From contig JBBISF010000004.1 of assembly GCA_037441425.1 (NCBI GenBank), positions 10,215-74,214 of the forward strand: DNA of 64,000 nucleotides, read 5' to 3'. The notes under the pieces were generated by a model. That model was given only the letters and a program-made list of their open reading frames with translations, was not told where the DNA came from and did no database searches. Below are positions 4,715 through 60,552 of the stretch, piece after piece. Made by a program: the position numbers and the translations under genes. Source of the stretch: Verrucomicrobiia bacterium (lineage in GTDB: Bacteria; Verrucomicrobiota; Verrucomicrobiia; Palsa-1439). The stretch's first letter is position 1. Every line of letters begins with the position of its first letter.

Positions 4715-5025
4715 CAGTAAAACGATCCGCCGCTGTAGTAGTACACGCGCGGGGGAGAGTAATAGCGGACGGGTGGCGGATTGTAGTAATACGCCGGCGG
4801 CGGGGCATAGTACGAATAAGAGAAGGCGAACGACGGGAAATACCAACCCCAATCGCCGCCCCAGTAGTCGTGTCCGCGGTACCCGTGATCGCCGTGCTGA
4901 TAATATCCGCGGTAATAACCGCCCCTGAATCCATGTCCGTCACGCGCCATCGCCACGGGTGACACCATCAATCCGCCCACCGTCACGACCGCGGCAATCG
5001 TCAAAACCTTCAACATCCGTTTCAT
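4708..5025 (-). CDS. Small secreted Tyr/Gly/Pro-rich low-complexity protein
   Basis: Signal peptide MKRMLKVLTIAAVVTVGGLMVSPVAMA, then a ~75-aa segment dominated by Y, G, P, R and W (YYRGYY, YYAPPPAYYYNPPP). Convergently overlaps ald by 7 nt. Confidence 0.5.
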   Translation of the reverse strand: MKRMLKVLTIAAVVTVGGLMVSPVAMARDGHGFRGGYYRGYYQHGDHGYRGHDYWGGDWGWYFPSFAFSYSYYAPPPAYYYNPPPVRYYSPPRVYYYSGGSFYCY

Positions 5026-5100
5026 TGTATACCTCCGCTATCAATCCCTCTGACGAACCCGCCGGAAATCTATTCAAAACGCGCCCGAACGCAACCTGGG

Positions 5101-6000
5101 TCACGTATGCTGGTGATGATGGAGATGGTCGGGGCAGTATTCTTCGTCGCCCTTGCAGTCGGTGCAGACCCGGAAATCCAGCGTGGGATCGTCGTGATCG
5201 GTCTTGCCGCAGACGGCGCACCGGTGAAAGGCGGTGGCGGCGTCTTCTTTTTGTCGGTCTTTGACCGCGCCGTAGAACGCGCGGCGGCGCCGGCCTCGTT
5301 GAAGGCGTTCCCGGATGGAAAACTGGTATGTGCCCGAGGCTTCGAACGCGAGCATCTGTTGTTCGCGCGAGGCTTCCCAGAAGATAAACAACGCCATGAA
5401 AATCAGCATGTACTGGCTGTTCAGGGCCGCCCACACCAGAGCGATGCCGGCAATGATGCGGCTGATCCAGACGGAGACCACTGTCGCCGTCTCGGCGCGC
5501 AGAAAATGCCACAGCGCATCCCGCAGGATGCGTCCCCCGTCCATGGGGAACGCGGGGATCAGATTAAAGAGCAAGAGCCGCAGGTTCCACCGCGAGAGTG
5601 AAGAACAAACGTCGAACATCGGCCCGGGCACGCCCGCCAGATTGCCGAGTAGATGCGTGAGGCCGGAGAAGATCAACCACAACACCAGTGTGACGAATGG
5701 TCCGGCAACTGTCGTGATCAAATGCGCGGTGGGATTGAAAGCCGGTCGCACGAACGCCAGCCCGCCCAGCGGCCAGAGCAAAATATCCGTGGCTTCACCG
5801 TCGCACCACCGGGCCGCGAGGGCGTGGCCAAATTCATGCAGGAGGATGCTGCCGAAAAACAGGAAGACGAATACGAGGCCGATCAGGAAATTGGAATACG
5901 CGGACGCCTCCCAGTAGGCGAAAATGAAGAAGGTGAAGTGGAGTCGGACCCGAATGTCCCAGTACGTGCCCACCGGAACGCCCATGTTGAAGAAATCCAT
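5101..6000 (-). CDS. M50-family (site-2 protease-like) membrane metalloprotease with C-terminal Cys-rich zinc-ribbon
   Basis: HEFGHAL zinc motif inside a TM helix, several TM segments. C-terminal CAVCGK...CTDCKGDEEYCPDHLHHHQH. Confidence 0.7.
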   Translation of the reverse strand: MDFFNMGVPVGTYWDIRVRLHFTFFIFAYWEASAYSNFLIGLVFVFLFFGSILLHEFGHALAARWCDGEATDILLWPLGGLAFVRPAFNPTAHLITTVAGPFVTLVLWLIFSGLTHLLGNLAGVPGPMFDVCSSLSRWNLRLLLFNLIPAFPMDGGRILRDALWHFLRAETATVVSVWISRIIAGIALVWAALNSQYMLIFMALFIFWEASREQQMLAFEASGTYQFSIRERLQRGRRRRAFYGAVKDRQKEDAATAFHRCAVCGKTDHDDPTLDFRVCTDCKGDEEYCPDHLHHHQHT

Positions 6001-42645: not shown

Positions 42646-43416
42646 TCAGCTCCACACCTTCCACGGGGCTTGGCTGCTTTGCCAGAGTGATTCGAGCGTC
42701 CGGGTGTCGCGCAACGTGTCCATGCACTGCCAGAAGTCATTGTGCCGGTAGGCGACGAGTTGCCGGTCGGCAGCCAATTTTTCCAACGGCTCGCGTTCAA
42801 AGACGGTCTGATCGCCGGCAATGTAGTCGAGCACTTGGGGTTCGAGGACGAAGTAACCACCGTTGATCCAGCCTTCGCCGATCTGCGGTTTTTCGGTGAA
42901 CTCTTTGACGAAATCGCCGTCGAATGTCAGCCCGCCAAACCGGGCGGGTGGCCGGACGGCGGTAATGGTCGCAAGTTTGCCGTGGCGACGATGGAATTCG
43001 AATAACCGGCGGAGATCAACGTTGGTCACGCCGTCGCCATAGGTCATGAGGAACGTTTCCTTACCGAGCAAACCGGCGAGACATTTGAGGCGGCCACCGG
43101 TTTGGGTTTGGTCGCCGGTATCCAGCAGGTGCACGAGCCAGTCTTCGCGTTCCTGAGCGTGCGTTTCCACGCGGCCTTTGCCGAGGTGGACAGTGAGATT
43201 ACTCTCCAGTTGATAGGACTCAATAAAGTAGCGTTTGATATGTTCGCCCTTATAGCCGAGCGCGAGAGCAAACTCTTTGAATCCGTGGTGGGCGTAGCTT
43301 TTCATGATATGCCACAGGATCGGCCGACCGCCGATCTCCACCATGGGTTTGGGTTTGATTTCGGTCTGTTCGGCCAAGCGCGTACCCAACCCACCGCATA
43401 GAATGACGACCTTCAT
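42646..43416 (-). CDS. rfbF: Glucose-1-phosphate cytidylyltransferase
   Basis: MKVVILCGGLGTRL...KPKPMVEIGGRPILWHIM. ~257 aa from ATG 43416. Confidence 0.85.
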   Translation of the reverse strand: MKVVILCGGLGTRLAEQTEIKPKPMVEIGGRPILWHIMKSYAHHGFKEFALALGYKGEHIKRYFIESYQLESNLTVHLGKGRVETHAQEREDWLVHLLDTGDQTQTGGRLKCLAGLLGKETFLMTYGDGVTNVDLRRLFEFHRRHGKLATITAVRPPARFGGLTFDGDFVKEFTEKPQIGEGWINGGYFVLEPQVLDYIAGDQTVFEREPLEKLAADRQLVAYRHNDFWQCMDTLRDTRTLESLWQSSQAPWKVWS

Positions 43417-43560
43417 TGGCAAATTAAGAAAGCCGGAGGCGCGGCGTCTTTGTTGATGTGGGTGCCACAACGAAGTTGGTAACCAGTTCTCACGGTTTTG
43501 CCAGCAGGTTTCTAGCATTCGGCTGGCGCTCGGTCAAGAATGGGACGCTTTACGATTTAA

Positions 43561-43651
43561 TTTTGATGTAGGGACAATGCTCTGCATCAAAATCTCTGTT
43601 TGTGATGTCCCGCGTCGACCAAGGTTTGGAGGTTTGACGCGCGTTGGTCGA
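43561..43651. promoter_or_regulatory. Two 8-bp inverted repeats plus a GTTTGGAG triple direct repeat in the divergent rfbF/lipoprotein control region
   Basis: TTTTGATG-N16-CATCAAAA and TCGACCAA-N21-TTGGTCGA. The region is lower in GC than the flanks. Confidence 0.25.
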
Positions 43652-43806
43652 GTTTGGAGCCTTTTTTGTAATTCTCCTCTGAACAGGTTCCAGGTAACGA
43701 GGTCAAGTCAAGGAAGGATCTGCCGATTTGTCTTTACAGGCACCGAGGGAGGATTTATCGGTCGGCCCGGTGGAGAGCCGTAATCCAACCCAGAGGAACA
43801 ATCATC

Positions 43807-44307
43807 ATGACTAATGGCTCTAAAGTTTTTAATTGTGTCTGCATCCTGTCACTGAGCCTAGCATTGACTGGATGTCAGACAATCCGTAGCCCCGGCACAG
43901 CAAGCCAGTTTGCGGACAGCGTTAGGGAGACTCCCGTAGACGTGGTACGGGCCCATCTGTTGGCGATGCACGATCCGACGGTGTTTGAGTCGCTCGCCGC
44001 GCCGGTGGTGGGCATCTCAGGCGGTGAAGGTGCGGATCGTATTTGGTATCGCAACGCCGAGTTTACGGTCCGGCAACGTCAGGAAAATCCCGCGCCGCCG
44101 CACCGAGTGATCGACTTGCAGACACACTTCCTTGATAAGGCGCTGGCTGCCGTCATCGCGAGGTATACCACGGCGGATCGTTCGGTGACCTGTCGGGCTA
44201 TCTATACGCTCTCGCGTGAAAGTGGCGAATGGCGAATCGTGTCCCTTGTGTTTGAGACGCAGCTCACTCAGTTCCTCCACCGGGACCAATGCCGCGCGCG
44301 CGATTAA
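43807..44307 (+). CDS. Lipoprotein, hypothetical
   Basis: ATG after GAGGAACAATC. Lipobox LALTGC. Confidence 0.5.
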   Translation: MTNGSKVFNCVCILSLSLALTGCQTIRSPGTASQFADSVRETPVDVVRAHLLAMHDPTVFESLAAPVVGISGGEGADRIWYRNAEFTVRQRQENPAPPHRVIDLQTHFLDKALAAVIARYTTADRSVTCRAIYTLSRESGEWRIVSLVFETQLTQFLHRDQCRARD

Positions 44308-44428
44308 TGCCTTGGGATGGGGCTGGGGAGACAGGAGGATTTCTATAGGGCCAAAACAAACAAAACTACCCGGCGAATTAGGGCGCTTTGCGGTTGAATT
44401 TTGAACGAAGGGCAACTAACTTGCGCGC

Positions 44429-45097
44429 GTGTCCAGCATCCTCACAACAGCAACTTTGCAGGTGCGGGTCCTTGAGGTGCGCCCGCTGACCGAAGCGACC
44501 TATGTGCTGCGATTGGAACGGCAGGGTGTGGCGTTTCGGGCCGGGCAATCCATCACGCTGGGTGTCAGCCGGATGCGAGTCAATCGCGAATACACAATTT
44601 ATTCGGGGGAACAGGACGATTACATCGACGTGCTGATCCGAGAGATTCAAGGCGGCACGGTTTCAGTAGCCTTACGCCGCTGTCCCCCGGGTGAACTGCT
44701 GGAGTGCAACGGCCCGTTCGGTTCATTTGTCATTCCAGAGCCATCAGATCGGTTGCGAAAATACCTTTTTATCGCTTCCGGCACTGGCATTGCCCCATAC
44801 CATTCAATGGTCCGGACCCATCCTGAGCTTGATTACCGGATCATCCACGGGATTCGCAATGCGCGGGAACAGTATGACCTTGCGGACTACGACCATGCCC
44901 GTTATGTCGCTTGTGTGACCGGTGAACCCGGTGGCGATTTTTCCGGGCGCGTCACCGCCTATCTCCACCAACACCCGGTCGATCCCGGCAGCCACTGCTA
45001 TTTGTGCGGCAACGGTCGCATGTTGACGGCCGGCTACGAACTGCTCCGCGAACAAGGCGTGCCCAGCGACCAGATTCATCTGGAGGCGTTTTTCTGA
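44429..45097 (+). CDS. Ferredoxin-NADP reductase-like FAD/NAD(P)-binding oxidoreductase
   Basis: REYTIYS (RxYS FAD motif), FIASGTGIAP NAD(P) motif. 222 aa. GTG start. Confidence 0.65.
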   Translation: MSSILTTATLQVRVLEVRPLTEATYVLRLERQGVAFRAGQSITLGVSRMRVNREYTIYSGEQDDYIDVLIREIQGGTVSVALRRCPPGELLECNGPFGSFVIPEPSDRLRKYLFIASGTGIAPYHSMVRTHPELDYRIIHGIRNAREQYDLADYDHARYVACVTGEPGGDFSGRVTAYLHQHPVDPGSHCYLCGNGRMLTAGYELLREQGVPSDQIHLEAFF

Positions 45098-46653
45098 TGC
45101 GCGTGGCCATTTCGTATCCGCCGATAGTTAACGAGCTGGGCCAGAAGGCCATGGTCTCGCAGAACCGCAACGTCCAGTATTTCAAGACGCCGACGTATCT
45201 GTTGCCGGTGGTGCATGCGCAAGCGGCCACCTGGTTGCGTGATCTCGGTCACGAGGTGTACTGGGACGACGGCAATGCTCAATTGAAAACCTTTGCGCAG
45301 TGGTACCGCGATTTGCTGGCATGGCAACCGGACCTAGTGGTGTTCGAGAGCACAACCCCGGTCATGAAGTTTTACTGGCGGCTGATCCAGCGGCTCAAAC
45401 AAGACCGACCGGATATCATGATCGTTATGACCGGCTATCACTCGATGCGGATGCCGTTCGAGACGATGAACAAGTGTCCTGTGGACATTGTCTTGCGCAG
45501 TAATCACGTCGATTTCGTGCTCAGCAAATTGGTGCCGTTTATTACCACGCACCCGGACTGGCGCACCACCTGCGCTCTTGAAGGATTGTTTATTCGCACG
45601 GCCAACGGTGAGCAACGGCAGACCGGCAGTTTCAAGCAGATTGAGCCGCTCGACAATTCGCCTGATGTGGATCGTGACCTGGTCCAATGGCAGCGGTACG
45701 CGTACGAGAACGGCAATTTTCTGCGAACGCCCGGCACCTACGCCACGAGCGTTGTCCGCGATTGCACATTCGGTAAGTGCACCTTCTGCCGCTATAACGG
45801 TCCTGATCTTACGTTTTCGATGCGATCGGTCCAGCGCAGTCTCGACGAATACCAGCGACTCATCGAGCAATACGGCGTCCGCGAAATCTTTGATGATTCT
45901 GGCGTGTGGTACCGCGGCAAGGAAGCCCGCGAGTTTTGCGAGGGACTCATCGCCCGCGGGCTGCACCGAAAGGGTTGCTACTTCGGCCTGAACACACGGT
46001 TTGCCTACCTCGATGAGGAAACCATCCAGCTCATGGGCCAGGCGAATTTCCGGTTCGTGTTGCTTGGCTTGGAAGCGTGCGACGACGAGACGCTCAGCCG
46101 GTTGAACAAGGGGTATCAAGTTGTGGACGTTGAACAGAATCTGCGCTGGTTCACCAAGTACGGTCTGCATCCGCACCTGACCGTCATGGTCGGTTACTAT
46201 TGGCAGACGCAGCAACAACTGGATCAGACCGTCCAGACGGTCCGGCAATTTATGTTCCAGGGCCTCGCGCGGACGCTCCAAGTCACCATCTGTACCCCGC
46301 TGGATTTCACCCCTTACCACCAAGAATGCTTGGACCAGGGCGTTCTGCTCACGGACGACTACGACGACTTCGACATGAGCAAAGTCATCGTGAAAACGCC
46401 GATCCCACACGAGCGGCATTACGAGGCCATCCGTCAGATGTACGGGATTGCCTTTCATCCGAAATTTCTCGCACGGCAAATTGCTTTCCTTGCCTCAGGT
46501 CGCATTCGGGATTGGGAATTCTTGTTCACTTACGGTTGGCGAGCTTTACGCCGCGTGCGCCAACACATCTTCAACTTGACTCAGGCCCGCCAACTTCAAA
46601 AACCGGCCAGCGGTGATGCTCACCACGCCGACGAACCCGCGTTGAACTCGTGA
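45097..46653 (+). CDS. B12-binding (class B) radical SAM protein
   Basis: N-terminal cobalamin-binding-like domain. Cys cluster CTFGKCTFC (Cx4Cx2C variant). ~518 aa. TGATG overlap with the reductase gene. Confidence 0.7.
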   Translation: MRVAISYPPIVNELGQKAMVSQNRNVQYFKTPTYLLPVVHAQAATWLRDLGHEVYWDDGNAQLKTFAQWYRDLLAWQPDLVVFESTTPVMKFYWRLIQRLKQDRPDIMIVMTGYHSMRMPFETMNKCPVDIVLRSNHVDFVLSKLVPFITTHPDWRTTCALEGLFIRTANGEQRQTGSFKQIEPLDNSPDVDRDLVQWQRYAYENGNFLRTPGTYATSVVRDCTFGKCTFCRYNGPDLTFSMRSVQRSLDEYQRLIEQYGVREIFDDSGVWYRGKEAREFCEGLIARGLHRKGCYFGLNTRFAYLDEETIQLMGQANFRFVLLGLEACDDETLSRLNKGYQVVDVEQNLRWFTKYGLHPHLTVMVGYYWQTQQQLDQTVQTVRQFMFQGLARTLQVTICTPLDFTPYHQECLDQGVLLTDDYDDFDMSKVIVKTPIPHERHYEAIRQMYGIAFHPKFLARQIAFLASGRIRDWEFLFTYGWRALRRVRQHIFNLTQARQLQKPASGDAHHADEPALNS

Positions 46654-47663: not shown

Positions 47664-48457
47664 ACTATGCCGACGGCGAACCGCAGGCAGTACAACGCCA
47701 GCACGTGGATTGGACGGGAGAGGAAACGCTTCCATTTTCCCTGTTCGAGAAACACTCCAAAGTAACGGTACCAAAGCCCAAATTGTTTCTTAGTAATCGC
47801 GTCGCGCCCCCACTTGGTAAAGTACGTCGCGAAGTTCTGCGCGTAGTAAGCTTTCTTGCGGATGTACCGGCGAAAATCAAACTTGCCTTCGTTGTGCAGT
47901 AGATGTGTGTCGGCCAACGCAAATCGCCCCCTTACAGCCAGTCGCCGGTCGAGATCCCAGTCTTCCGGCCCACACAGGTTGGGGTCATAACCGCCGATCT
48001 CAACGAATGTTGCCCGGTGGATGAAGCGCACGGCGTCAATCGGCGTCGTGTTATAAAACGACCGTTCAAAATTCTGCACGCTGATCCAGAAGCTTGTGCC
48101 CACGATCTTTTCCGGGATGAACGCGGCGATTACATCCGGTACCGCCACGACGGCTAGGCATGCGCGTACTAGCGTTGGCGCAACCATCATGTCGGCGTCG
48201 AGAAACAGCAGAAACTCCCCGGTGGCTTGTGCCGCGCCAAAATTGCGCTGCGCCGAGCGTTCGGGACCGATCTGATAGAAGCGAACACCATATTTGCTAG
48301 CGACGGCAGACGTGTCGTCGGTGGAGAAGTTGTCCACGACGATGATTTCCAGTTGTTCCTGTGGGTAATCCAGAGCGCGAACTGCGGCGAGGCAGTCGTC
48401 GAGAAACCGTCCCGCATTGCGCGTGGGAACAATGATGCCAACCCGCGGTTCAGCCAT
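47624..48457 (-). CDS. GT2-family glycosyltransferase
   Basis: VGIIVPTRNAGRFL, VVDNFSTDDT, LFLDADMM motifs. Confidence 0.7.
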   Translation of the reverse strand: MAEPRVGIIVPTRNAGRFLDDCLAAVRALDYPQEQLEIIVVDNFSTDDTSAVASKYGVRFYQIGPERSAQRNFGAAQATGEFLLFLDADMMVAPTLVRACLAVVAVPDVIAAFIPEKIVGTSFWISVQNFERSFYNTTPIDAVRFIHRATFVEIGGYDPNLCGPEDWDLDRRLAVRGRFALADTHLLHNEGKFDFRRYIRKKAYYAQNFATYFTKWGRDAITKKQFGLWYRYFGVFLEQGKWKRFLSRPIHVLALYCLRFAVGIVYLRSKFGSSSDG

Positions 48458-48484
48458 GAACACAGCGAATACAATCCCGAGGCC

Positions 48485-49732
48485 ATGCTGGCAATCATTT
48501 TATCGCATGGCCTTGGTCGGCCTGCTCTGGTACAAAGTTTATCTATGCACAAAGAGGGGGCGCAGAGCTTGCAAGAAGTGCGTGTGGTGATAGTGCTGCA
48601 CTACTACGCCACGGGGCCCGGTCAGGAACTACATGGGTGGCTGGTTGGAAAGCGAATCGCCGAAGCAGCGCTGTTGGAACACCCGTTCCCTTATTCCGAT
48701 CGCTCGTTCGCCCGTTGGGAGCGCTGCTCTCCTGACGGCAAGCTCGCCGGGCAAAATTTTCCGAGGTGGGTTCGACCCATGTTTCTGCGCTACACGTTGG
48801 ATTTTATCCGCACGCTGCGTCTGGTTCTGCGCGCCGGCGTCCGGTATGACTATTATGTTGGAAATGGTGCGTTTAACACTGCACCCGGTATCATTCTGCG
48901 GTGGCTCGGCAAAGTTCACCACGTGGTTCTCTACACGATTGACTACGCGCCTCAGGCGGGTGGCAATCGCCTCTACGAAATGGCGTACCGGTGGATCGAT
49001 CGTTTTTGTTGCCGGCGAGCGGATGTGATTTGGAATCTATCGCCGCGGATGCAAGAGGCCCGACAGAGAGACGGTTTGCAGGTGCGATTCTGTGCACCGG
49101 TAGTGATCGTGCCCCACGGTACCCATGCGACAGCACTGGCCTGTCTATTGCCTGGAAACCCTGACCCGTTGCGGGTTGCTTTCATGGGGCACGTACAAGA
49201 GAAGTCCGGTTTGCAACTTTTCCTCGAAGTCATGCCGGAGTTAGCGCAGGAACTTCCCGGGTTACGGCTCGAGGTGTTTGGTGATGGCCCTTATCTGCCC
49301 CGATTGCGTGAGCAGGTGATCATGCGAGGGCTCACTTCGTCCGTTGCCTTTCATGGGTTTATTCCAGACCACGTCGAATTGGAACGTCAATTGGCACGTT
49401 GTGGGGTGGGGTTGGCGCTCTACCATCCCGAGACGGCCGGGTTTTCTTGGTTGGCTGATCCCGGTAAACCGAAGGTTTACCTCGCTTGCGGATTGCCGGT
49501 CATCATCACGAATGTTCCGTCCGTTGCCGAGGAAATCGAGCGTCGCAAAGCCGGGATCTCGATCCGGTTCGATGTTGCCGAGCTGCGAATGGCCCTGCAT
49601 GCCGCGATCTGCAACCACGGTATGTACCGAGCCAACGCTTTGGCGATGGCCAAGGAATTCAATTGGGACTGCGTCTTTGATCGAGCCTGGCAGGAGACGC
49701 AGGCACTAGTCAAACGGGAGCAGGAACGATGA
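48485..49732 (+). CDS. GT4-family glycosyltransferase
   Basis: C-terminal Glycos_transf_1-like region (E-x7-E context, GLPVIITNV). Start ATG 48485 after GAGG; alternative 48548. Confidence 0.7.
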   Translation: MLAIILSHGLGRPALVQSLSMHKEGAQSLQEVRVVIVLHYYATGPGQELHGWLVGKRIAEAALLEHPFPYSDRSFARWERCSPDGKLAGQNFPRWVRPMFLRYTLDFIRTLRLVLRAGVRYDYYVGNGAFNTAPGIILRWLGKVHHVVLYTIDYAPQAGGNRLYEMAYRWIDRFCCRRADVIWNLSPRMQEARQRDGLQVRFCAPVVIVPHGTHATALACLLPGNPDPLRVAFMGHVQEKSGLQLFLEVMPELAQELPGLRLEVFGDGPYLPRLREQVIMRGLTSSVAFHGFIPDHVELERQLARCGVGLALYHPETAGFSWLADPGKPKVYLACGLPVIITNVPSVAEEIERRKAGISIRFDVAELRMALHAAICNHGMYRANALAMAKEFNWDCVFDRAWQETQALVKREQER

Positions 49733-50526
49733 AACGAATTGCCCGCTGCTTCGCATTACAAGTTAACGGTTTGTTGCCGTTTCTCTATCCGTTGTGCCAT
49801 GTGGTTCGACGGGGTAATTGGTTCCGTGGCGTGTATCGTTACGGTCGTGACTATCGGCGTTACCGGATGGCAGAGCGCTCCGGCGACCCATTTCCGTTAC
49901 GTTTTTTCAATACCTACCCGCAACTATTTGACCGGTTTGAGCCGGCGGGCAATGTTCCGCGCCACTATTTCCTGCAGGATCTGTGGGCTGCGCAAAAAGT
50001 ATTTGCGTCGCGCGTGCCGGTTCATTACGACATTGGTAGCCGGGTGGATGGCTTTATTGGGCATTGCGCGATATTTTGTCAGGTGGTCATGCTCGACATC
50101 CGTCCCCTCGCACTCAAAGTTCCCAACGTCGAGTTCCATCACGCCGACGCCACGGACATGAGTGATATTCCGAACGGAAGTATTCCTTCGTTGTCTTCGT
50201 TGCATGCCGTCGAACACTTCGGTTTGGGTCGGTACTGCGACCTGGTGGAGCCGGGAGCGCATGAAAAGGCGCTGCGGGAGATGATGAGGGTGTTAGCTCC
50301 AGGCGGTAACCTGTATTTGTCGGTTCCTGTCGGGCGGCAACGTCTGGAGTTTAACGCACATCGGGTATTTGATCCGGTTGGGATTCTCGAACTCTTGCCC
50401 AGCCTGAACCTGCAAGAGTTTTCGGTGATCGATGACGCCGGTGTATTGCGAGAGAACGTGCGGCCCGCAGAATACCGACAAGCCGGATACGCTTGTGGCT
50501 TGTTCTGGTTCTGCAAGTCTGTGTAA
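49729..50526 (+). CDS. SAM-dependent methyltransferase (DUF268-like)
   Basis: SLSSLHAVEHFGLGRY motif. ATGA overlap with the GT4 gene. Confidence 0.55.
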   Translation: MKRIARCFALQVNGLLPFLYPLCHVVRRGNWFRGVYRYGRDYRRYRMAERSGDPFPLRFFNTYPQLFDRFEPAGNVPRHYFLQDLWAAQKVFASRVPVHYDIGSRVDGFIGHCAIFCQVVMLDIRPLALKVPNVEFHHADATDMSDIPNGSIPSLSSLHAVEHFGLGRYCDLVEPGAHEKALREMMRVLAPGGNLYLSVPVGRQRLEFNAHRVFDPVGILELLPSLNLQEFSVIDDAGVLRENVRPAEYRQAGYACGLFWFCKSV

Positions 50527-50537
50527 GTTGCGAATAA

Positions 50538-51377
50538 TTGATGAACCGGACCGATTTCTTTGCCAGCGCCGAAGCCGTGATTCGAGAGACGATTGCTACA
50601 GTCAGTACTGTATACGGCAAATCGGGAAGCCACATTGATATTAGTTCTCCATCCTACCGGCGGCCGATCTTGGAGAGAATTTGGCGCGTGCTGTACGCAA
50701 ACGCGTGGCGCCCAGATGTAGGAAAACTCACGGTTCTTGATATAGGGGTGGGCAAGGGATGGAGTTCGTACTTGCTGGCTGCGCATTGCCGTCGGGTATT
50801 GGCATGTGATCTCTCCACTACCATTTCCGAGCAGATGGAATTGAATGACCAACCGCAGTGGCAACGCCTTCTCTGGAAGCACTTTGTTGCTGGTCGTCCA
50901 AATTTGGCTTACGTTTTTTTCGACGGGACAGCTTTGCCGGTGACGACCGAGTCAGTGGATCTCGCCGTTGCGGTGGCAGTCTTCGAGCATGTCGGCAACA
51001 ATACACTCGACCACACCGCCCGACGTGCTTGGTTGCGAGAGGTATCTCGCGTGCTCAAACCCGGCGGGCGGCTACTGATTGTCGCGTGTCCCAACCGTCA
51101 TTCCTATGCCGAAGCTCTCGCCCGCCTGCTGGGGTTGCCGCATCATACCAAGACGTTTTCCGGCAACGAAATGCGAATGCTCATCGAAGAGGCCGGGTTG
51201 GCAATCGAGGAGATTCAGTTTACCCACCCGTTTATTGATTTCTATCCGCTTCGCCTGATGCAACGACTGTGGTCGGTGTGCTACGGCTGTGGGATTCGCT
51301 TTGTTGAACCAGTTCTTGGGGTGCTACCGCTTCGCTACGTGTGGCATCACCATTGCGTAATTGCAGTTCGCAAGTGA
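50538..51377 (+). CDS. Class I SAM-dependent methyltransferase
   Basis: VLDIGVGKGW motif I, LKPGGRLLI motif. Confidence 0.65.
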   Translation: MMNRTDFFASAEAVIRETIATVSTVYGKSGSHIDISSPSYRRPILERIWRVLYANAWRPDVGKLTVLDIGVGKGWSSYLLAAHCRRVLACDLSTTISEQMELNDQPQWQRLLWKHFVAGRPNLAYVFFDGTALPVTTESVDLAVAVAVFEHVGNNTLDHTARRAWLREVSRVLKPGGRLLIVACPNRHSYAEALARLLGLPHHTKTFSGNEMRMLIEEAGLAIEEIQFTHPFIDFYPLRLMQRLWSVCYGCGIRFVEPVLGVLPLRYVWHHHCVIAVRK

Positions 51378-51387
51378 CGACAGCCGG

Positions 51388-53835
51388 TCAGGCGGACCGT
51401 CGCTTGTCGGCTACGGCTTGTAGCCCAGCAACACCAACGATGACCGATGCGAAACCGAGCGCAACCAAGTGGATGTAGATTGCCGTGGCTGGGCTTTGGT
51501 AACGAACCACTACTTCAGAGTGTCCGGCGGGAACAGGGACCGCATAAAGAATCAGGTCGGCGCGCACGGGCGCGACCGGGTGTCCGTTGACCGCTGCGTG
51601 CCAGTTTGCGTCGTAGCGGTCGTTGATCAATAGATAACCGGGCGTGGGGGCTTCGACCGCGGCTTCGATCCGGTTACCGGAGTAGCGTTGCAGATGAACG
51701 GTTCCCACCGCGTTGCCGGTCCCGCTCGGGGCGGTTGGGTGGTCGAGTAACAGCGTGCGGCGCGGGTCCCAATCGGCGGACGCTAGTCGGCGACTCAGTT
51801 CAGACTGATTATCGAAAACTTCGATTCCCGGCACAAATGTCGCCTTGGACAGGTAGTTCTTCAGAGTCACCACCGCGTGGGTCGCCTGCCAGGTATCGGT
51901 AACAGCGATCACCGTCAGGTCGTCTAATTTCGTGCCTTGCGCCTGGAAGAGCGCCACGCCGGTGATGTTGGTCTGCAATTCGGTCACGCGCTGAAGCTGG
52001 CTTAAGCCGGCAGCCGGTAGTGCCAGATACTTGACGCCGGCCAGTTGCCAGAGACGGATCGGATTGCTCTCCAACGCACTGAAGAACGCGAGGTAGTTGT
52101 CGGGCATTCGCGACGAGGCGGGAATATCAAGGGATGCAATCCGGTAGTACGGAAACACCGCGCTCAGGTAGTAGTGCAACAGACCATCTTGCGCGAGGAG
52201 TTTGACGCGCGCCGGTTCTGGATCGGCGCGGAGGGTTTCGATCAGCGGGTTGCTCCGGTACGCCGCGCGGAAGTTGAACGGTTCCAGATAGTGCGTGTGC
52301 ACCCAAAACATCTGGGCGACAACCAAGCCCGCCAACACGGGAATGCGGGCTGACGGTTTCGCCGCCACAAACCAGAGCAGCCCCACGACCGCCACAGTCA
52401 CCCCGGCGGCAAGACGGACAACACCCAGCGCGGCGGCAATTTCCGCCCGGCTATACCCTTGCGGCGCCAGCGTCTGCGGCAACCACGAATCCGCTCCCAG
52501 TGCCGCCAACAACACCAGGCCCGCCGCCGCGCTGACACCGGTCAGCAACCAGCGCCACCGTTGATTGGGTGAACCGTCCAGCCACATCTGCACACCATAG
52601 GCCGCCAGCACGGTCAGACAAAATCCGCCCGGCACCATGAATTTCAGCGGATTGCGCCACGTACCCATGTACGGGAGTTTGTAGAACAACCAGTAGAATG
52701 GCGCATACCGACCCAGCGCCAACAGGTAGCAGATGACCAAAGCCACGGTGAAGAACCGACCGTAGAACCGGCTATCGGTGTCGAGTAACTCCTCTGTGGT
52801 TGCATCCTTTTGGGCGGGCCGATTTCTGCGCCATAGCATCCACGCCCCGGCCAAGGCGAACACCAAAGCCACGGTGCCGAAGCTGTTGGCACTGATGGAA
52901 AAATTGCGGAATCCTTGATGGTCTTGCGCCCAGCCGGCTTGTCGGCCAATCCGTCCCCAGTACGGCCCATCCGGATCACCGCTGCGCCAGCCGAAAAAGC
53001 CGGGCACGAGATAATCCAAAGTCTCCGCGAACGGCAGACTCCACTGCGTCGCCCAATTCCAATGCTCTTGAGGGTTATCGCTGGCCACCTGTTTGACGCC
53101 GGTGATTTGCGTTTCAAGCATCGTTTGGAGCGTCGGCAACGCCACCAGTGCTGACATTCCGATAACCGCCAGCAACCGGCCGCCAAGCATCAGACTTTCC
53201 CGTCGCTCCCGCCGTAGCGCACGACCGATACCGGCCAGGAACAACGCGCCGACCAGCAAGGCCACCAACATTCCATGGTCGGGCTGGAGACAGATGTTCA
53301 TCCCTAAAATTGCGCCACAGACAATCGCCGCCCACCAATTCCGACTACGGATCGCCCGCAGCGCGGCACCGACGGCCAACGGCATCAGAACTAGCAGCGC
53401 CATGGGGCCAAAATGACCTGAGTAGATATTGCTAAGCAACGGTCCCTGCCACCCGTAGATCAACCCGCCGATGACGGCTGCCGGGCGCGCCAGTTTCAAT
53501 TCGCGCAACAGCCAATAGGCCGTCCCGACAGCCAGTGCGCCGCAGAGCGGATAAAATAGCGTGAAAAACCACCACACCGGCAAGTGCGCGAGGAGTGAAG
53601 TCGGCGTCAACGGTACCGGCAAATTCGGAAACCCGAGCCAATAATCATAACTCATGAACCCTTGCGGCGGGAACTGAAACCGCATCGCGCGATAGCTGCC
53701 CGGTGTGACGTCATTGGTCAGCGGAACGAATTGGCCGCCGGAGAAAAAGTAGCAGAGCCACAACTGCAACAGAAGCGTTCCGCCAGCAGCCAGTAACAGC
53801 CAGCGATTATTATGTTGCCCAACCGGTTTCTTCAC
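51388..53835 (-). CDS. Large polytopic membrane protein, YfhO-like GT-C glycosyltransferase candidate (copy 2)
   Basis: 815 aa. Many N-terminal TM helices, large soluble domain, terminal TM. 4-nt overlap with the upstream GT2. Confidence 0.45.
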   Translation of the reverse strand: MKKPVGQHNNRWLLLAAGGTLLLQLWLCYFFSGGQFVPLTNDVTPGSYRAMRFQFPPQGFMSYDYWLGFPNLPVPLTPTSLLAHLPVWWFFTLFYPLCGALAVGTAYWLLRELKLARPAAVIGGLIYGWQGPLLSNIYSGHFGPMALLVLMPLAVGAALRAIRSRNWWAAIVCGAILGMNICLQPDHGMLVALLVGALFLAGIGRALRRERRESLMLGGRLLAVIGMSALVALPTLQTMLETQITGVKQVASDNPQEHWNWATQWSLPFAETLDYLVPGFFGWRSGDPDGPYWGRIGRQAGWAQDHQGFRNFSISANSFGTVALVFALAGAWMLWRRNRPAQKDATTEELLDTDSRFYGRFFTVALVICYLLALGRYAPFYWLFYKLPYMGTWRNPLKFMVPGGFCLTVLAAYGVQMWLDGSPNQRWRWLLTGVSAAAGLVLLAALGADSWLPQTLAPQGYSRAEIAAALGVVRLAAGVTVAVVGLLWFVAAKPSARIPVLAGLVVAQMFWVHTHYLEPFNFRAAYRSNPLIETLRADPEPARVKLLAQDGLLHYYLSAVFPYYRIASLDIPASSRMPDNYLAFFSALESNPIRLWQLAGVKYLALPAAGLSQLQRVTELQTNITGVALFQAQGTKLDDLTVIAVTDTWQATHAVVTLKNYLSKATFVPGIEVFDNQSELSRRLASADWDPRRTLLLDHPTAPSGTGNAVGTVHLQRYSGNRIEAAVEAPTPGYLLINDRYDANWHAAVNGHPVAPVRADLILYAVPVPAGHSEVVVRYQSPATAIYIHLVALGFASVIVGVAGLQAVADKRRSA

Positions 53836-55815: not shown

Positions 55816-55882
55816 ATCGGCCTGACTGTGTAAGCCAAAACCATTGCCGCCGCCAGAGTTTTCGTGTACAAGCTGGCCCACC

Positions 55883-57112
55883 ATGAAAATTGTTGTGGCG
55901 TACTCCGGCGGGTTGGATACCTCGGTCATTTTGCGATGGTTGAAGGACACCTATCAATGTGAAGTCGTCGCGTTTTGCGCCGACATCGGGCAGGAAGAAG
56001 AACTGACCGGCCTCGATAAGAAAGCGTTGGCCACCGGCGCGAGCCGGTTCTTTGCGCTCAACCTCGTGGAGGAATTCGCCCGCGATTTCATTTTCCCGAT
56101 GATCCAAGCCGGCGCGATCTACGAGAGCCAATACTTCCTCGGCACGAGCATTGCCCGCCCGCTCATCGCCAAGGCGCAGGTCGAGATCGCCCGGAAAGAG
56201 AAAGCGGACACCGTGGCGCACGGCGCCACCGGCAAGGGCAACGACCAATGCCGGTTCGAGTTGACCTATGCCGCGCTCGCGCCCGATCTCAAGATCATTG
56301 CGCCGTGGCGCTTGCCGGAATATCACAACCGCTTCAAGGGCCGGGCGGAGATGCTCGCGTATTGTCAGGAGCAGGGGATCAAGGTGGAAGCTAGCGCCAA
56401 GAAGCCGTACTCGATGGACCGCAATCTTCTGCACATTTCGTTTGAGTCCGGCATCCTCGAAGATCCGTGGAGCGAACCGCCAAAAGACATGTTCAAGCTC
56501 AGCGTGTCGCCCGAAGACGCCCCGAACCAACCGGAGTACGTCGAACTCGATTTCGAGTCTGGCATTTGCGTCGCCGTCAACGGCAAGAAACTCTCGCCCG
56601 GCAACGTCATGCGGATGTTGAATAAGCTCGGCGGCAAACACGGCATCGGCCGGGTGGACCTCGTCGAGAACCGGTTCGTGGGCATGAAAAGCCGGGGTGT
56701 GTACGAAACACCCGGCGGCACGATCCTGCATTTTGCCCACCGTCAGATGGAAACGCTGACGATGGACCGGGAAGTCATGCACCTGCGCGACTCGCTCATC
56801 CCGAAATACAGCGAACTGGTGTACTACGGCTTCTGGTTCAGTCCGGAACGGGAAGCGTTGCAGGCCCTCGTCACCGAGAGCCAGAAGAATGTCACCGGCA
56901 CCGTTCGCCTCAAGCTCTACAAAGGCAACGTCGTCACCGCCGGCCGCAAATCGCCGGTCTCGCTCTACAACCCGTACGTCGCCACGATGGAAGCCGACAA
57001 AGGCGCGTTCGATCAGACCGACGCCACCGGCTTCATCCGCCTCAACGCCCTCCGGTTGCGGACCCGCGCGGGCGTCTTGAAGTCGGGCAAAAAGACGCAG
57101 CCCTCCGCCTGA
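55883..57112 (+). CDS. argG: Argininosuccinate synthase
   Basis: [18 protein letters not shown]-PPase motif. Confidence 0.9.
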
Positions 57113-57490
57113 CCGGGTTCGGAATCGAGTATCTTCGGCGGAATTTCCGGCCGGGGATGCCAGCCTGCACTTTTCTCACCCGTGAGACGGGAACTCTGCC
57201 ATTCTGCATGGCATGAAGATGATTGAGCTGCGCCTGCAAACCATCCGGGGCGCGCAATTTCTGGAGACGCTCGGCCGGCTCAGCTTTCTCCCCGTGCCAA
57301 GTCCTCAGCCTGAAATGCCCGTGCCGGAAGGGCGGCCGGAGTGATGAACCACCCCGCGCCGTCATCCCCGTCTGGGTCGGCACCAAGCCTGCCGGCAATG
57401 ATCCCGTCGGCCAGTACACCAAGCTTGCCGGCTGCGATCCGCTGGCGAGCCTCACCGTCGAACCGCAGACATGATCCTCACGCACGCGGA

Positions 57491-57538
57491 CGGAACGGTG
57501 CCCCGTTCCGCTCCGGAGCGGAATCGGTCACGATTCCG
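57491..57538. other. Three consecutive GC-rich palindromes (two 8-bp-stem hairpins flanking GCTCCGGAGC)
   Basis: CGGAACGG-tgcc-CCGTTCCG; GCTCCGGAGC; CGGAATCG-gtca-CGATTCCG. No U-tract on either strand. Confidence 0.4.
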
Positions 57539-57718
57539 TTGGTCGTCGGTAAAGCTCTGTGCCCTCACCGCGCCGCGTCTTTGCTTCTGTCTTTACATCT
57601 GGCTTCGCGCGCGTGATGCTACGACACGGAAGATTGGCCTGCAATGAAGTGTGCGCCGGTAAGCTCGAATCGCGCCGTCCGGAATAGGCTGCAAAAACGC
57701 AGTTCACCATAAGGCTAG

Positions 57719-58147
57719 GTGATGATGCTGAAATTCCTGTCAGGGCTTAGCATGATAGTAGCAGTCTTCCTTGTGTTCAGTTCGTTCGCTGCTGCACAAA
57801 ACGCAGTCCCGCCTGCGGATCTATCAGCAATTTCAGATTTCTTTCGTAAGTATGTTTCGATAATCAACGCCGGTGATACGAACGCTTACTTACGGCTTGT
57901 ACATCCGAAGTATCTGGCGTGCAGGACGGCTAAGACAGGACCCTTTTACAGGCATTGGTTGAATTCAGAATTCAAATACCGGATTCCACCCGATTATACT
58001 GTGCACACGGAAATTATAGCCAATTGGACAGGGGGGGCGGACTTGCCGATATATTTGAGTTTCCGGTTCCGCCGACGCATTTTGTCAGTTTTGGTTTTCG
58101 GACCAAAGAGGTCTCACTGGGTGCGTGCCGGTACGTCATCTGCGTGA
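57719..58147 (+). CDS. Secreted hypothetical protein in low-GC islet; reading frame shifts at an internal G7 tract (alternative C-terminus to 58227)
   Basis: Signal peptide MMMLKFLSGLSMIVAVFLVFSSFAAAQ. GC ~48% against ~62% genome-wide. See repeat at 58031-58037. Confidence 0.45.
   Translation: MMMLKFLSGLSMIVAVFLVFSSFAAAQNAVPPADLSAISDFFRKYVSIINAGDTNAYLRLVHPKYLACRTAKTGPFYRHWLNSEFKYRIPPDYTVHTEIIANWTGGADLPIYLSFRFRRRILSVLVFGPKRSHWVRAGTSSA
58031..58037 (+). repeat. Homopolymeric G7 tract inside the CDS
   Basis: Directly visible run of 7 G. Confidence 0.6.
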
Positions 58148-58438
58148 CCAACACTGTGTTTCTTGTCATTCCATGTCCGAAGCCTCGGATCGTCGAGTAC
58201 TACCGCAAGCTAGAGACACGTCCTTGAAGGCCACATGCAAGAAATCACTTCGCTTCAGCGAACGGCGATCCGCGCGTTCGCTGGGTGTTCGCGTTCTGCT
58301 CCCACATCGCGTCTCCATAATCCTCGGCCGTTTCGCTAACTTGCTGTCTGCTGCTCCTATCCGGCGTGAGCGGCCAGCACGTCCGGCTTTACAGGCGGGG
58401 CGGGGCGCGCGAATCTGCCGGTAGGAGAAGGAGCAGCA

Positions 58439-59047
58439 GTGGCGCATACATTCGGCAGCAGTATGAAACGCTGGCACAAGGCCGTCTTCTTGATTCTCGG
58501 TATTGTGCTACTGTTTCGGCTCGGACAGTTCGCTTGGGTTAAAGCAACGCCGAGGTTGACACCGAGCCAACAAAGGTACATCGCGTTGCCCTGCGGTTAC
58601 TGGCTGTCCATCTTCCCGAAGAATGGGAGTCTGTATACAATCTGCGGAGTCACGCTGTGGGTATCTGCACCGGGCTGTTATGTCGCATTGATTGGGCCGA
58701 ATTGTTTTCGTGACCAGGCGCTCATCGGATGTGTCGCCTTGGCTTTCGCGGGGCTGACTCCTCTCGTCGGCTGGCGTCGAAAATCGTGGAAGCTATTGGG
58801 GATTGGACTGGGGCTTTCGGCCGCGTATGGTTGGTATTTCCGACCATGGCGGGTATTTGAGAGAATCATGTTGAACCCCAGTGCACCTTCTGAATCGCTG
58901 TCCCGATTTTATCGGGAGGCGTTGCCCTGGATTTGGTGTATGCGGTGCGTTGTGGTGGCTTGGATGGTCGCGCTCTTATTGACCGTTTTGGTGGTTTCAA
59001 GGCGGTACTGGCAACATCCAGCCAGCGCTTGGCTACGCCCCCGATGA
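58439..59047 (+). CDS. Hypothetical membrane protein (4 predicted TM helices) in low-GC islet
   Basis: Hydrophobic helices at AVFLILGIVLLFRLGQFAW, LIGCVALAFAGLTPLVGW, LLGIGLGLSAAYGWYF and VVVAWMVALLLTVLVV. Confidence 0.4.
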   Translation: MAHTFGSSMKRWHKAVFLILGIVLLFRLGQFAWVKATPRLTPSQQRYIALPCGYWLSIFPKNGSLYTICGVTLWVSAPGCYVALIGPNCFRDQALIGCVALAFAGLTPLVGWRRKSWKLLGIGLGLSAAYGWYFRPWRVFERIMLNPSAPSESLSRFYREALPWIWCMRCVVVAWMVALLLTVLVVSRRYWQHPASAWLRPR

Positions 59048-59057
59048 GGCGGTCGGG

Positions 59058-59204
59058 TTGATCTTTGTCGGTGGTCTTGAGGCTCTTGCGAATCTGCTTG
59101 CCGTCACGCTTGAATAAGGCATAGTACACGCCCGATGTTTCGGATCAATACAGGTTTTTCCCGACGTGATGCAGGGCGTGATTTACGATTGGCGTCGTTT
59201 TCAT
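59058..59204 (-). pseudogene. Decayed tyrosine-integrase N-terminal (arm DNA-binding) remnant with in-frame TGA
   Basis: Minus-strand translation MKTTPIVNHALHHVGKNLY*SETSGVYYALFKRDGKQIRKSLKTTDKDQ matches the phage-integrase N-terminal pattern LPxNLY...GVYYxRxRxxGKxxRxSLGTxDKxxA. Similarity is lost after ~45 aa. Confidence 0.45.
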
Positions 59205-59297
59205 GCCTTGTATCACACAGGGTGACAACTTGGGGTCATAAGTGCAAAATTGCAGTTTGTACGGAAACGGAGTTTGACCGCATAAACATTGATTGAT

Positions 59298-59373
59298 GAG
59301 CCGGTAGCTCAGTTGGTAGAGCAACGGCCTTTTAAGCCGTGGGTCGTGGGTTCGAATCCCACCCGGCTCACCA
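59298..59373 (+). tRNA. tRNA-Lys (anticodon UUU)
   Basis: GAGCCGG acceptor, anticodon loop CTTTTAA, TTCGAAT T-loop, encoded CCA. Confidence 0.85.
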
Positions 59374-59539
59374 ATCTTTTCCCGCCGCGTTCAGCGGTCG
59401 AAGAATTCCCGGGCCCGTTGAAAGTCGGCCGGGATTTCAGGGGCGGCGACGCTGAGTCGCCTCAGACCGGCGTGTTCGCTCTGTTGACTTTTTGGCAAAT
59501 CTTCCGCTAGGTTCGTGACCATCCGTGGGATGCGCGATG

Positions 59540-59626
59540 GCCCGGGTGGCGGAACGGCAGACGCATCGGACTTAAAATCCGAAGGTGGGTTAAACCACCG
59601 TGGGGGTTCGAATCCCCCCCCGGGCA
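59540..59626 (+). tRNA. tRNA-Leu (anticodon UAA)
   Basis: GCCCGGG acceptor, anticodon loop CTTAAAA, long variable arm, GGGGG-TTCGAAT-CCCCC T arm, no encoded CCA. Confidence 0.85.
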
Positions 59627-59706
59627 CTTCGGCTGGGGCAGGGGCGTCCTGCGGTTTTCTGCCTTTCCATTTGTCAGGGCCGGGTGCTTGCTTTATTTTG
59701 GTCGTC

Positions 59707-60552
59707 ATGCGCCGTGTGTGGGATCAATCCAGTTTGGCCGGGTCAATCCGGGCGTGGTTCAGCCGTTTCCGTTCGGTCACGCAATTCCTGTTGGTGGCGA
59801 ACTGCGCCGTGTTCATCGTCCAACTGCTGTTCCGGTTTGCCAACAGCGGATGGTTTGACGAGACCTTTTCCTTGAGCGGCGCGGGCTTGCGGCACGGGTT
59901 TGTCTGGCAGCCGGTGACGTACATGTTTTTGCACGGCGGCGTGCTGCACATCCTGATCAACATGCTCGTGTTGTGGTTCATTGGTCGGGAGGTGGAGTTC
60001 TTCATTGGCGCGAAACATTACATGCGGCTGTATTTCCTCGGCGGAATTGCCGGGGCGGCGCTCTGGCTGGCATTCAACTGGCACGAGGGCGCGGTCCTGG
60101 GCGCGTCGGCCGCGATATTGGGGTGTGTCATTGCGTTCGCGACGTTGTTCCCGGAACGGGAGATCACCTTTCTGCTGTGGTTCATCATCCCGATTTCGAT
60201 CAAGGCCAAGTATCTGGCGTGGATTTGCGTGGCGCTCGACGTGGTGCCGCTGCTCGAACACGAGCCGGGGAACGTGGCGCATCTGGCGCATCTGGGCGGG
60301 GCGCTGCTGGGATACGTTTACGTGAAACAACTCGGCTACGGGCCGCCGCCGTTTTGGATGCGGTGGGTGGGGGCGCTCGAGGGCGGGTTGCGCCCGCGCC
60401 GGTCGGAGAACGTTTCGGCGGCGGAGTATATCCGGGAGCAGGTGGATCCGATCCTCGACAAGATCAGCCGGGAAGGGATGCAGAGTTTGACGCGGGAAGA
60501 ACGAGCCATCCTGGATCGGGCGCGCGATTTGATGGAGAAGAAGAAGCGGTGA
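59707..60552 (+). CDS. Rhomboid-family intramembrane serine protease
   Basis: 6 TM core. GASAAILG (GxSG) and AHLGGALLG (catalytic His) motifs. Start moved to ATG 59707 because the track ORF overlaps tRNA-Leu. Confidence 0.75.
   Translation: MRRVWDQSSLAGSIRAWFSRFRSVTQFLLVANCAVFIVQLLFRFANSGWFDETFSLSGAGLRHGFVWQPVTYMFLHGGVLHILINMLVLWFIGREVEFFIGAKHYMRLYFLGGIAGAALWLAFNWHEGAVLGASAAILGCVIAFATLFPEREITFLLWFIIPISIKAKYLAWICVALDVVPLLEHEPGNVAHLAHLGGALLGYVYVKQLGYGPPPFWMRWVGALEGGLRPRRSENVSAAEYIREQVDPILDKISREGMQSLTREERAILDRARDLMEKKKR

Follow-up and report, generated by a model that had tools for sequence, protein, structure and literature searches.

The window analysed here is a 64-kb stretch of Verrucomicrobiia bacterium DNA (contig JBBISF010000004.1, positions 10,215 to 74,214, forward strand; all positions below are counted from the first letter of the window), and this work concerns a low-GC islet at 57719-59290. 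From left to right the islet holds a frameshifted gene for a small secreted protein, a gene for a membrane protein whose C-terminus is truncated and replaced and, on the minus strand, the remnant of a tyrosine-integrase gene (int), which a short spacer separates from an intact tRNA-Lys(UUU) gene and, further on, a tRNA-Leu(UAA) gene (Table 1). We regard the islet as quite likely the eroded end of an integrative element that once stood at tRNA-Lys(UUU), was of the type that displaces a 5' tRNA fragment and was later destroyed. An earlier note on this DNA, made from its letters alone, had seen in the islet the fossil of a tRNA-associated integrative element, and the strong integrase similarity described below bears this out.

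The same note had reported a fall in GC content to about 48-52% over about 1.5 kb. The islet does have the lowest GC in the window (53.2% compared with 60.2% across the 64 kb, when all 1572-nt windows are compared in 50-nt steps), but the drop is patchy rather than uniform, with intervals ranging from 48.4 to 59.5% (Table 1). Native GC is regained on the far side of the islet at about 57650-57719. For reference, GC at third codon positions (GC3) is 0.73 +/- 0.06 in 35 open reading frames (ORFs) of the window, with a minimum of 0.595. There are also two further stretches of lowered GC, at 42750-46500 and 48000-51750, with about 55-57% GC, GC3 down to 0.60 and long ORFs. An Rfam scan of 56900-59800 (E <= 1) recovered the two tRNAs only and no further RNA.

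Table 1. Coordinates of features in the window, and of tRNA-associated features in related loci (L numbers).
Feature	Position or locus	Strand	Basis
Frameshifted small secreted-protein gene	57719-58227	+	phmmer homologs, frame-repaired alignment
G7 homopolymer, frameshift site	58031-58037	+	sequence and comparison with P0006
Membrane-protein gene, C-terminus truncated/replaced	58463-59047	+	P0004 homology, hydrophobic segments
Tyrosine-integrase pseudogene remnant	58974-59204	-	tblastn of full-length L088/L082 integrases
In-frame TGA, integrase codon 20	59145-59147	-	translation and alignments
int-tRNA spacer, 93 nt	59205-59297	.	blastn and spacer alignment
tRNA-Lys(UUU), intact, target gene	59298-59373	+	ARAGORN; Rfam 79.6 bits
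tRNA-Leu(UAA)	59540-59627	+	ARAGORN, Rfam
Interval with 48.5% GC	57719-58147		
Interval with 59.5% GC	58148-58438		
Interval with 55.3% GC	58439-59047		
Interval with 48.4% GC	59048-59297		
int-linked tRNA Thr-CGU	L082-L086, L105, L118		
int-linked tRNA Lys-UUU	L088, L091-L094, L097, L102, L104, L001, window		
int-linked tRNA Met-CAU	L090, L095, L096, L098-L101, L106		
int-linked tRNA Arg-CCU/CCG	L103, L107, L109, L110, L113, L115-L117		
int-linked tRNA Ser	L108, L114		
int-linked tRNA Val	L111, L112		
Pseudo-tRNA	L082:1-97		
Pseudo-tRNA	L083:1304-1360		
Pseudo-tRNA	L096:308-400 (= L095:5738-5830)		
Pseudo-tRNAs	L101:783-850, ~1100-1165, 1184-1284		

The integrase remnant

Just left of tRNA-Lys, the minus strand reads MKTTPIVNHALHHVGKNLY*SETSGVYYALFKRDGKQIRKSLKTTDKDQPDRLIGGVAKRWLDVASTALKPP, and the proposed integrase similarity at this place is confirmed by tblastn against full-length homologs of the PF00589 family: the remnant is 48% identical to the integrase of locus L088 over the N-terminal 110 residues (E 5e-25) and also matches the full-length integrase of locus L082 (E 9e-24). 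Two short relatives, P0001 and P0002, which came from a word-indexed search of 5.8 billion proteins, align at 46-48% identity (E 1e-21 and 2e-19). Codon 20 is Arg in the homologs and TGA in the window. The remnant runs from codon 1 to about 52, has an in-frame gap of 33-37 codons, continues for about 25 more codons (LIGGVAKRWLDVASTALKP) and is cut off at about codon 110 of about 395. In all, about 77 codons of the N-terminal region are retained, homologous to the arm-binding region and, in the last 25 or so, to the start of the core-binding domain of bona fide integrases. The earlier description of some 45 integrase residues, interrupted by TGA and followed by loss of similarity, was therefore right about the N-terminus and the stop codon but understated the extent, as similarity continues to about codon 110.

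Searching every frame of the window with full-length homologs (tblastn) returned no piece of the remaining 280 or so codons, which include the catalytic domain, and the R...HxxR...H/W...Y feature of PF00589 is missing from the remnant. On the window fragment itself, Pfam gives only a weak DUF6538 match (E 0.13). This integrase copy cannot be active, and what the window holds is a pseudogene of a PF00589 family member rather than a functional member.

An integrase family on the 5' side of tRNA genes

A metagenome scan with an alignment of the integrase N-terminus yielded 37 related loci, with flanks limited to 6 kb. Intact integrase ORFs of 364-411 amino acids (aa) are present in 21 of the 37, and about a third of the loci carry pseudogene copies. 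The intact relatives match Pfam PF00589 (Phage_integrase) at E 4e-12 to 1e-21, SAM-like N-terminal domains, the phrog_1 integrase family (E 8e-49) and, below cut-offs, Xer-type NCBIfam models. In their alignment R205, R320, H344 and Y355 are invariant and H317 is near-invariant (R..HxxR..H..Y), and the full-length proteins also have a small N-terminal domain with a weak DUF6538 match. A scan of viral contigs found only distant integrases (<= 37% identity) with no tRNA nearby, and no published description of this Verrucomicrobial integrase clade was found in a literature search that was not exhaustive.

The position of the tRNA gene relative to int is the same throughout the family. All 35 assessable loci, and L001 as well, have a tRNA gene immediately upstream of int on the other strand, with the two 5' ends facing each other about 80-100 bp apart; in the remaining two of the 37 the contig stops short of the tRNA position. 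L001 is a 1.4-kb contig that encodes P0002 together with a divergent upstream tRNA-Lys(UUU) and a frameshifted continuation of the integrase. The identity of the tRNA (Thr, Lys, Met, Arg, Ser or Val; Table 1) tracks the int clade. As a divergent arrangement on the 5' side is the norm of this integrase family, no rearrangement is needed in the window, whose orientation is the native configuration of the family, and the earlier claim that rearrangement must have occurred can be dropped. More generally, rearrangement need not be assumed where an integrase stub is seen on the "wrong" side of a tRNA, since the whole clade works from the 5' side.

It could nevertheless be argued that a conventional island was inserted at the tRNA 3' end and that an inversion or another rearrangement then carried its remnant to the 5' side. 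The 3' side is the commonest location, accounting for 3760 of 3919 islands at tRNA genes (tDNA islands) in Islander (PMC4383910), and synteny with relatives identified through ArgG is broken at the islet junction. However, the 5'-side divergent geometry recurs in every assessable related locus, with six tRNA isotypes and the same 93-nt spacer, alignments to other genomes continue without a break through tRNA, spacer and int, and independent identical rearrangements are implausible. This model is already contradicted, and we give it next to no credence.

The spacer and its repeats

The distance from the tRNA to the int ATG is 93 nt in the window, L088 and L095, and 90-91 nt in the Thr loci. Unbroken blastn alignments at 74-77% identity run from tRNA through spacer into int between the window and L088, L092, L001 and the Thr locus L082. 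Nearly all loci, with any tRNA type, have two TTGT(A/C)ACCC repeats spaced by 13 nt, at about positions -36 and -23 relative to the ATG, and degenerate copies of the tandem TTGTAACCC repeat lie in the window at 59233-59241 and 59220-59227 (minus-strand sense). The layout of the family spacer, as seen at L088:5920-6012 and in the equivalent spacers of about 20 loci, consists of ATTTTG, two TTGTAACCC repeats 13 nt apart and TGTATAnT about 8 nt before the ATG; a further TTGTAA motif often adjoins the tRNA 5' end. Such a layout suggests a promoter for a nearly leaderless int mRNA that would be overlapped by predicted Int-binding repeats, and we infer these roles, int promoter or Int-binding site, from the motifs and their spacing.

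The target tRNA and the side of the element

In L088 and L091-L094, as in the window, genes for a rhomboid protein (54-57% aa identity) and for glnE (62-66%) lie on the 3' side of tRNA-Lys, and this common flank identifies the tRNA as a resident gene at a conserved chromosomal position. Between the rhomboid gene and tRNA-Lys, some of these loci carry a recQ-like helicase gene and a small ORF (L088:3116-5239; L093:~3656-5843) in the place that tRNA-Leu occupies in the window, so that the 3' side of the tRNA is variable as well.

Loci with host flanks of 73-78% identity share a tRNA-int block at about 95% identity. For example, the host flanks of L088 and L092 are about 75% identical while their tRNA-spacer-int blocks are 95% identical and the DNA past the int stop is unrelated; L093 and L094 agree at 78% in their left flanks but at 94% in int and the next 3.5 kb or more to its right. 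On the far side of int from the tRNA, the related loci have genes that encode a ParE toxin, DUF4926, HTH_17-like, Toprim/AAA_25 and 1494-aa helicase/ResIII-like proteins, which are typical of mobile elements; no genes are shared between the right flanks of the related loci and the window (tblastx). These sequence comparisons place the element on the int side, 5' of the tRNA.

The same comparisons bear on the alternative that the recombinase descended vertically as a domesticated host gene tied to tRNA genes and merely decayed in the window. A tRNA-int pair with the same rhomboid-glnE flank is indeed present in several distantly related genomes. Vertical inheritance is nevertheless hard to reconcile with an int block about 95% identical where the flanks are 73-78% identical, with the variable mobile-element-type genes to its right, with the pseudogenes that make up about a third of int copies, with target switches among tRNA isotypes and with the bracketing repeat of L082 described below, and we hold it to be very improbable.

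Within the tRNA itself, positions 1-43 are 98-100% identical among the Lys loci and the spacer is 89-98% identical; over tRNA 5' part, spacer and int, identity stays at 89-100%. It drops to 82-88% between host lineages at positions 44-76, and past the 3' end the DNA is unalignable.

A bracketing repeat in a related locus, and the search for one in the window

Locus L082 contains, 2.55 kb from its tRNA-Thr, a direct repeat of 38 nt (36/38) that copies the 5' half of this tRNA through the anticodon loop. Between tRNA and repeat lie int and the genes for DUF4926 and the ParE toxin, and past the repeat comes a glutamine synthetase gene. L082:98-2763 thus makes a very small candidate island of about 2.6 kb, composed of a putative hybrid tRNA-Thr, int, DUF4926, ParE, a possible antitoxin ORF and the 5' tRNA-Thr fragment.

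No comparable fragment was recovered from the window. The earlier note had pointed to a possible attachment-site (att) remnant, a repeat of the tRNA 3' end within 57.1-57.8 kb, and nothing beyond chance was found there; a repeat of the tRNA 5' half, the one expected for this integrase family, was likewise not found beyond chance in the window. Repeats of the tRNA-Lys 3' end, 5' half, 3' half and anticodon arm, sought in 54-59.3 kb and in the whole window, gave background only. The best window matches are 22/38 for the 5' half and 23/38 for the 3' half, both background (19-22/38 for the 5' half in 36 other loci). A 12/15 match at 57275-57289 was considered as an att remnant and rejected, as it has a seed of 8 nt, similar families abound and it concerns the wrong tRNA end. 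With no tRNA-Lys fragment in the window, the far boundary of the element is undefined.

A different account of these junctions is that the element carries a complete tRNA of its own, recombines through a short core in the anticodon loop and splits the host tRNA, which is not rebuilt but complemented by the element copy. This mechanism is documented in mycobacteriophages, including a case at tRNA-Lys-UUU (PMC10865867), and L082 could be read in the same way, as its complete tRNA stands between a copy resembling the 3' half (1-40, 34/38) and a copy of the 5' half (2726-2763). However, the left copy in L082 is not a clean half, as it runs into a hairpin and a degenerate D-arm like the pseudo-tRNAs of L083, L096 and L101. 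Between the tRNA and the host flank, no 3'-half fragment is found in the window or in eight Lys loci (best 18-21/38, background); split host tRNA halves flanking the element are therefore missing from these loci, and L082 is ambiguous in this respect. Moreover, divergence between host lineages affects the 3' part of the tRNA, whereas its 5' part, the spacer and int remain 89-100% identical. An element-borne complete tRNA thus seems to us distinctly unlikely.

Pseudo-tRNAs lie just 3' of the int-linked tRNA in L082, L083, L095/L096 and L101 (Table 1). A perfect longer hairpin takes the place of their anticodon arm. Its sequence is CTCCGAA..TTCGGAG at Thr loci; the version at Met loci, CCCCGAC-ATCCGGT-GTCGGGG, is arranged like a recombinase core site. 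The pseudo-tRNAs have tRNA-like folds (z down to -4.2) and receive no Rfam tRNA call. Small GIY-YIG ORFs stand between the pseudo-tRNA and the real tRNA at L083:1366-1605 (-), where the product matches PF01541 (E 7e-12), and at L101:855-1085 (-), where it is 46% identical to the L083 copy (tblastn, E 1e-12). These ORFs may represent a separate tRNA-associated cassette. Neither the pseudo-tRNA nor the GIY-YIG arrangement is present in the window.

The two low-GC genes

The four-transmembrane protein of the earlier note is a real ORF. It opens at 58439 (202 aa), with the ATG at 58463 as its likely start, and encodes four strongly hydrophobic segments; its GC3 is 0.63. The sole non-self homolog, P0004 (221 aa), is 50% identical (71% positives) over residues 9-185, ending at about 58993. 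The C-terminal hydrophobic segment of P0004 (191-221) is missing from the window protein, and the last 18-24 or so codons of the ORF are the antisense of the integrase remnant. An identical sequence of this gene is found on the independent Logan contig L119, which comes from run SRR11582168. In the simplest reading, a deletion with its junction near 58975-58995 took the rest of int together with the 3' end of the membrane gene.

The signal-peptide protein is also encoded by a real ORF, but a frameshifted one. The ORF at 57719-58147 (142 aa) is the front part of a 169-codon gene ending at 58227: similarity to homologs stops at about residue 110-119, at the G7 run, and the C-termini of the homologs match the +1-frame continuation. 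A G8 in place of the G7 would restore ...NWTGGGGLADIFEFP... (counterpart in P0006: NWNGGGGLATIFDFP), and the 169-aa protein obtained by restoring one G, which has an N-terminal signal peptide, aligns end to end with P0005 (49%) and P0006 (55%). In the homologs the Gly run is encoded by mixed codons with no homopolymer. The G7 run, one of only three homopolymers of at least 7 nt in the 64 kb, may have arisen by slippage or phase variation, may be a fixed mutation or may be an error of the assembly; contig L119, which begins at 58174, does not cover it.

Relatives of the secreted protein are few. A phmmer search of 1.84 billion representatives gave 16, the best being P0005 and P0006 (E 1e-24), and the 142-aa ORF had no match in a word-indexed protein search. 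Pfam, NCBIfam and PHROGs gave no match to the two islet ORFs or to their homologs. The AlphaFold model of P0006, with a predicted local distance difference test (pLDDT) value of 84, has weak best matches to NTF2-like/SnoaL-like structures in a Foldseek search of the PDB (E 0.02-0.5, TM 0.3-0.6), and the secreted protein probably has an NTF2-like fold. Its gene is the lowest-GC part of the islet, with a GC3 of 0.50-0.56, which is 3-4 standard deviations (SD) under the window genes. Homologs at L122:8832-9326 and L120:86-673 are single low-GC genes (52%) amid core genes of 59-62% GC; their neighbours are a TPR protein, aconitase and the suf operon, with no int or tRNA nearby. Being low in GC in core-gene contexts as well, this protein family is compositionally odd wherever it is found.

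That the two genes are retained cargo, as the earlier note proposed, is only weakly supported: both are present, but one is frameshifted and the other has lost its C-terminus. They might instead be native, in which case a deletion of the element body, the far att and some host DNA would have joined the int stub to host genes. A native origin would agree with the secreted-protein homologs that are equally low in GC among core genes and have no int or tRNA beside them, with the finding that neither islet gene is carried by any related element, and with a membrane-protein GC3 that falls within the range of the reference genes of the window. Against this, the GC3 of the secreted-protein gene lies 3-4 SD below the window genes, homologs of the two genes are extremely scarce (16 and 1 in billions of sequences), neither is near argG or tRNA-Lys in relatives, and both are decaying alongside int. 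We consider a native origin somewhat unlikely and the retention of cargo doubtful.

The argG side of the islet

The 606 bp between argG (55844-57112) and the islet (57113-57718) have native GC (62%), and in this interval no ORF with homologs, Pfam match, significant tblastx match or repeat elsewhere in the window was found. It contains an imperfect 25-nt palindrome at 57490-57539, with arms 80% complementary, and a 24-nt tandem-like repeat at 57381-57404 and 57417-57440. An ArgG-based search, which returned 80 genomes, provided no empty site for comparison. In the closest ArgG relatives (87-91% aa identity; L002-L012) the neighbours of argG differ from those in the window and no tRNA, rhomboid or glnE gene lies within 8 kb of it, so that the argG/tRNA-Lys junction is a synteny breakpoint in the window lineage.

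A model for the origin and decay of the islet

In the reading that we prefer, that of an eroded 5'-side element, the clade consists of heterobivalent-type tyrosine integrases whose elements would occupy the 5' side of the target tRNA gene. Int, which starts about 90 nt from the tRNA 5' end and is read in the direction leading away from the tRNA, would be the first gene of the element. Crossover would take place in or near the anticodon loop, with an attP that carries the tRNA 5' half and its promoter. The tRNA next to int would then be a hybrid, its 5' part from the element and its 3' part from the host, whose original 5' half would come to lie at the opposite end of the element. In the window, the 5' portion of tRNA-Lys and its promoter would accordingly be of element origin. 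Decay would have involved a nonsense codon in int, an internal in-frame deletion of 33-37 int codons and a larger deletion that removed about 280 int codons and everything up to the 3' end of the convergent membrane gene, which now terminates inside antisense int sequence.

Several points weigh against this model. No tRNA-Lys fragment survives in the window, and a bracketing 5' repeat is present in one related locus only (L082), the other loci, with their flanks of at most 6 kb, ending before the element does. Furthermore, L082 also has a 3'-half-like copy on its other side (1-40), which fits an element-borne complete tRNA. The identity step within the tRNA is suggestive and not proof, as tRNA 5' halves are conserved anyway. 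Because the loci were collected through N-terminal int patterns, they give no measure of how often a stub retains its N-terminus. Lastly, the occurrence of low-GC homologs in ordinary chromosomal contexts means that low GC is no proof of cargo.

As a tentative possibility, the loci may belong to an undescribed Verrucomicrobial element lineage that always enters from the 5' side and supplies the tRNA 5' half together with its promoter, and whose stubs are kept by selection, with the pseudo-tRNA and GIY-YIG arrangements being a second kind of element or an att site. If this were true, the int stub and spacer would be selected as drivers of an essential tRNA, which would explain the persistence of int N-terminal fossils. 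Similarly, if the element supplies the tRNA promoter, expression of the host tRNA would depend on element DNA, and this could stabilise the fossils. For the source genome the outcome is ordinary, namely a defunct integrative element and two damaged genes whose function is unknown. For annotation it matters more widely, as island finders and annotators tuned to 3' fragments will miss 5'-side elements in Verrucomicrobia.

Comparison with known systems

The integrase family shares with heterobivalent integrases of the lambda/P4 type the catalytic, SAM-like N-terminal and small N-terminal domains of the window's relatives, the location of int at the element end by att and tandem short repeats that appear to be placed like arm-type sites. 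The window copy differs from these integrases in having only about 77 N-terminal codons.

The mycobacteriophage Fionnbharth (PMC10865867) is similar in that the anticodon region of a tRNA is targeted (tRNA-Lys-UUU) and a complete tRNA lies near int. In integration of the Fionnbharth type the host tRNA is not rebuilt and both of its halves stay at the prophage ends. By contrast, neither the Lys loci nor the window has a 3' half next to the tRNA, whose 3' part varies with host lineage.

The closest resemblance in layout is to Islander islands with a displaced 5' fragment, which make up 159 of 3919 tDNA islands (PMC4383910). Like those islands, the family combines a tyrosine integrase, a tRNA target, an island 5' of the intact tRNA and a probable crossover at the anticodon sublocation, and L082 also shows the displaced 5' tRNA fragment, directly oriented, at its far end. 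Of the features by which Islander recognises an island, the intact tRNA at one end is represented in the window by tRNA-Lys(UUU) at 59298-59373, the integrase inside the island by a truncated pseudogene only, and the displaced tRNA fragment is found in L082 (36/38) and not in the window. The window differs from these islands in keeping the int-proximal end only, and as it has no fragment, intact int or definable far end, it would fail the Islander filters. The islet is a decayed example of a known, if uncommon, type of tRNA-targeting island, brought to its present state by ordinary genome decay.

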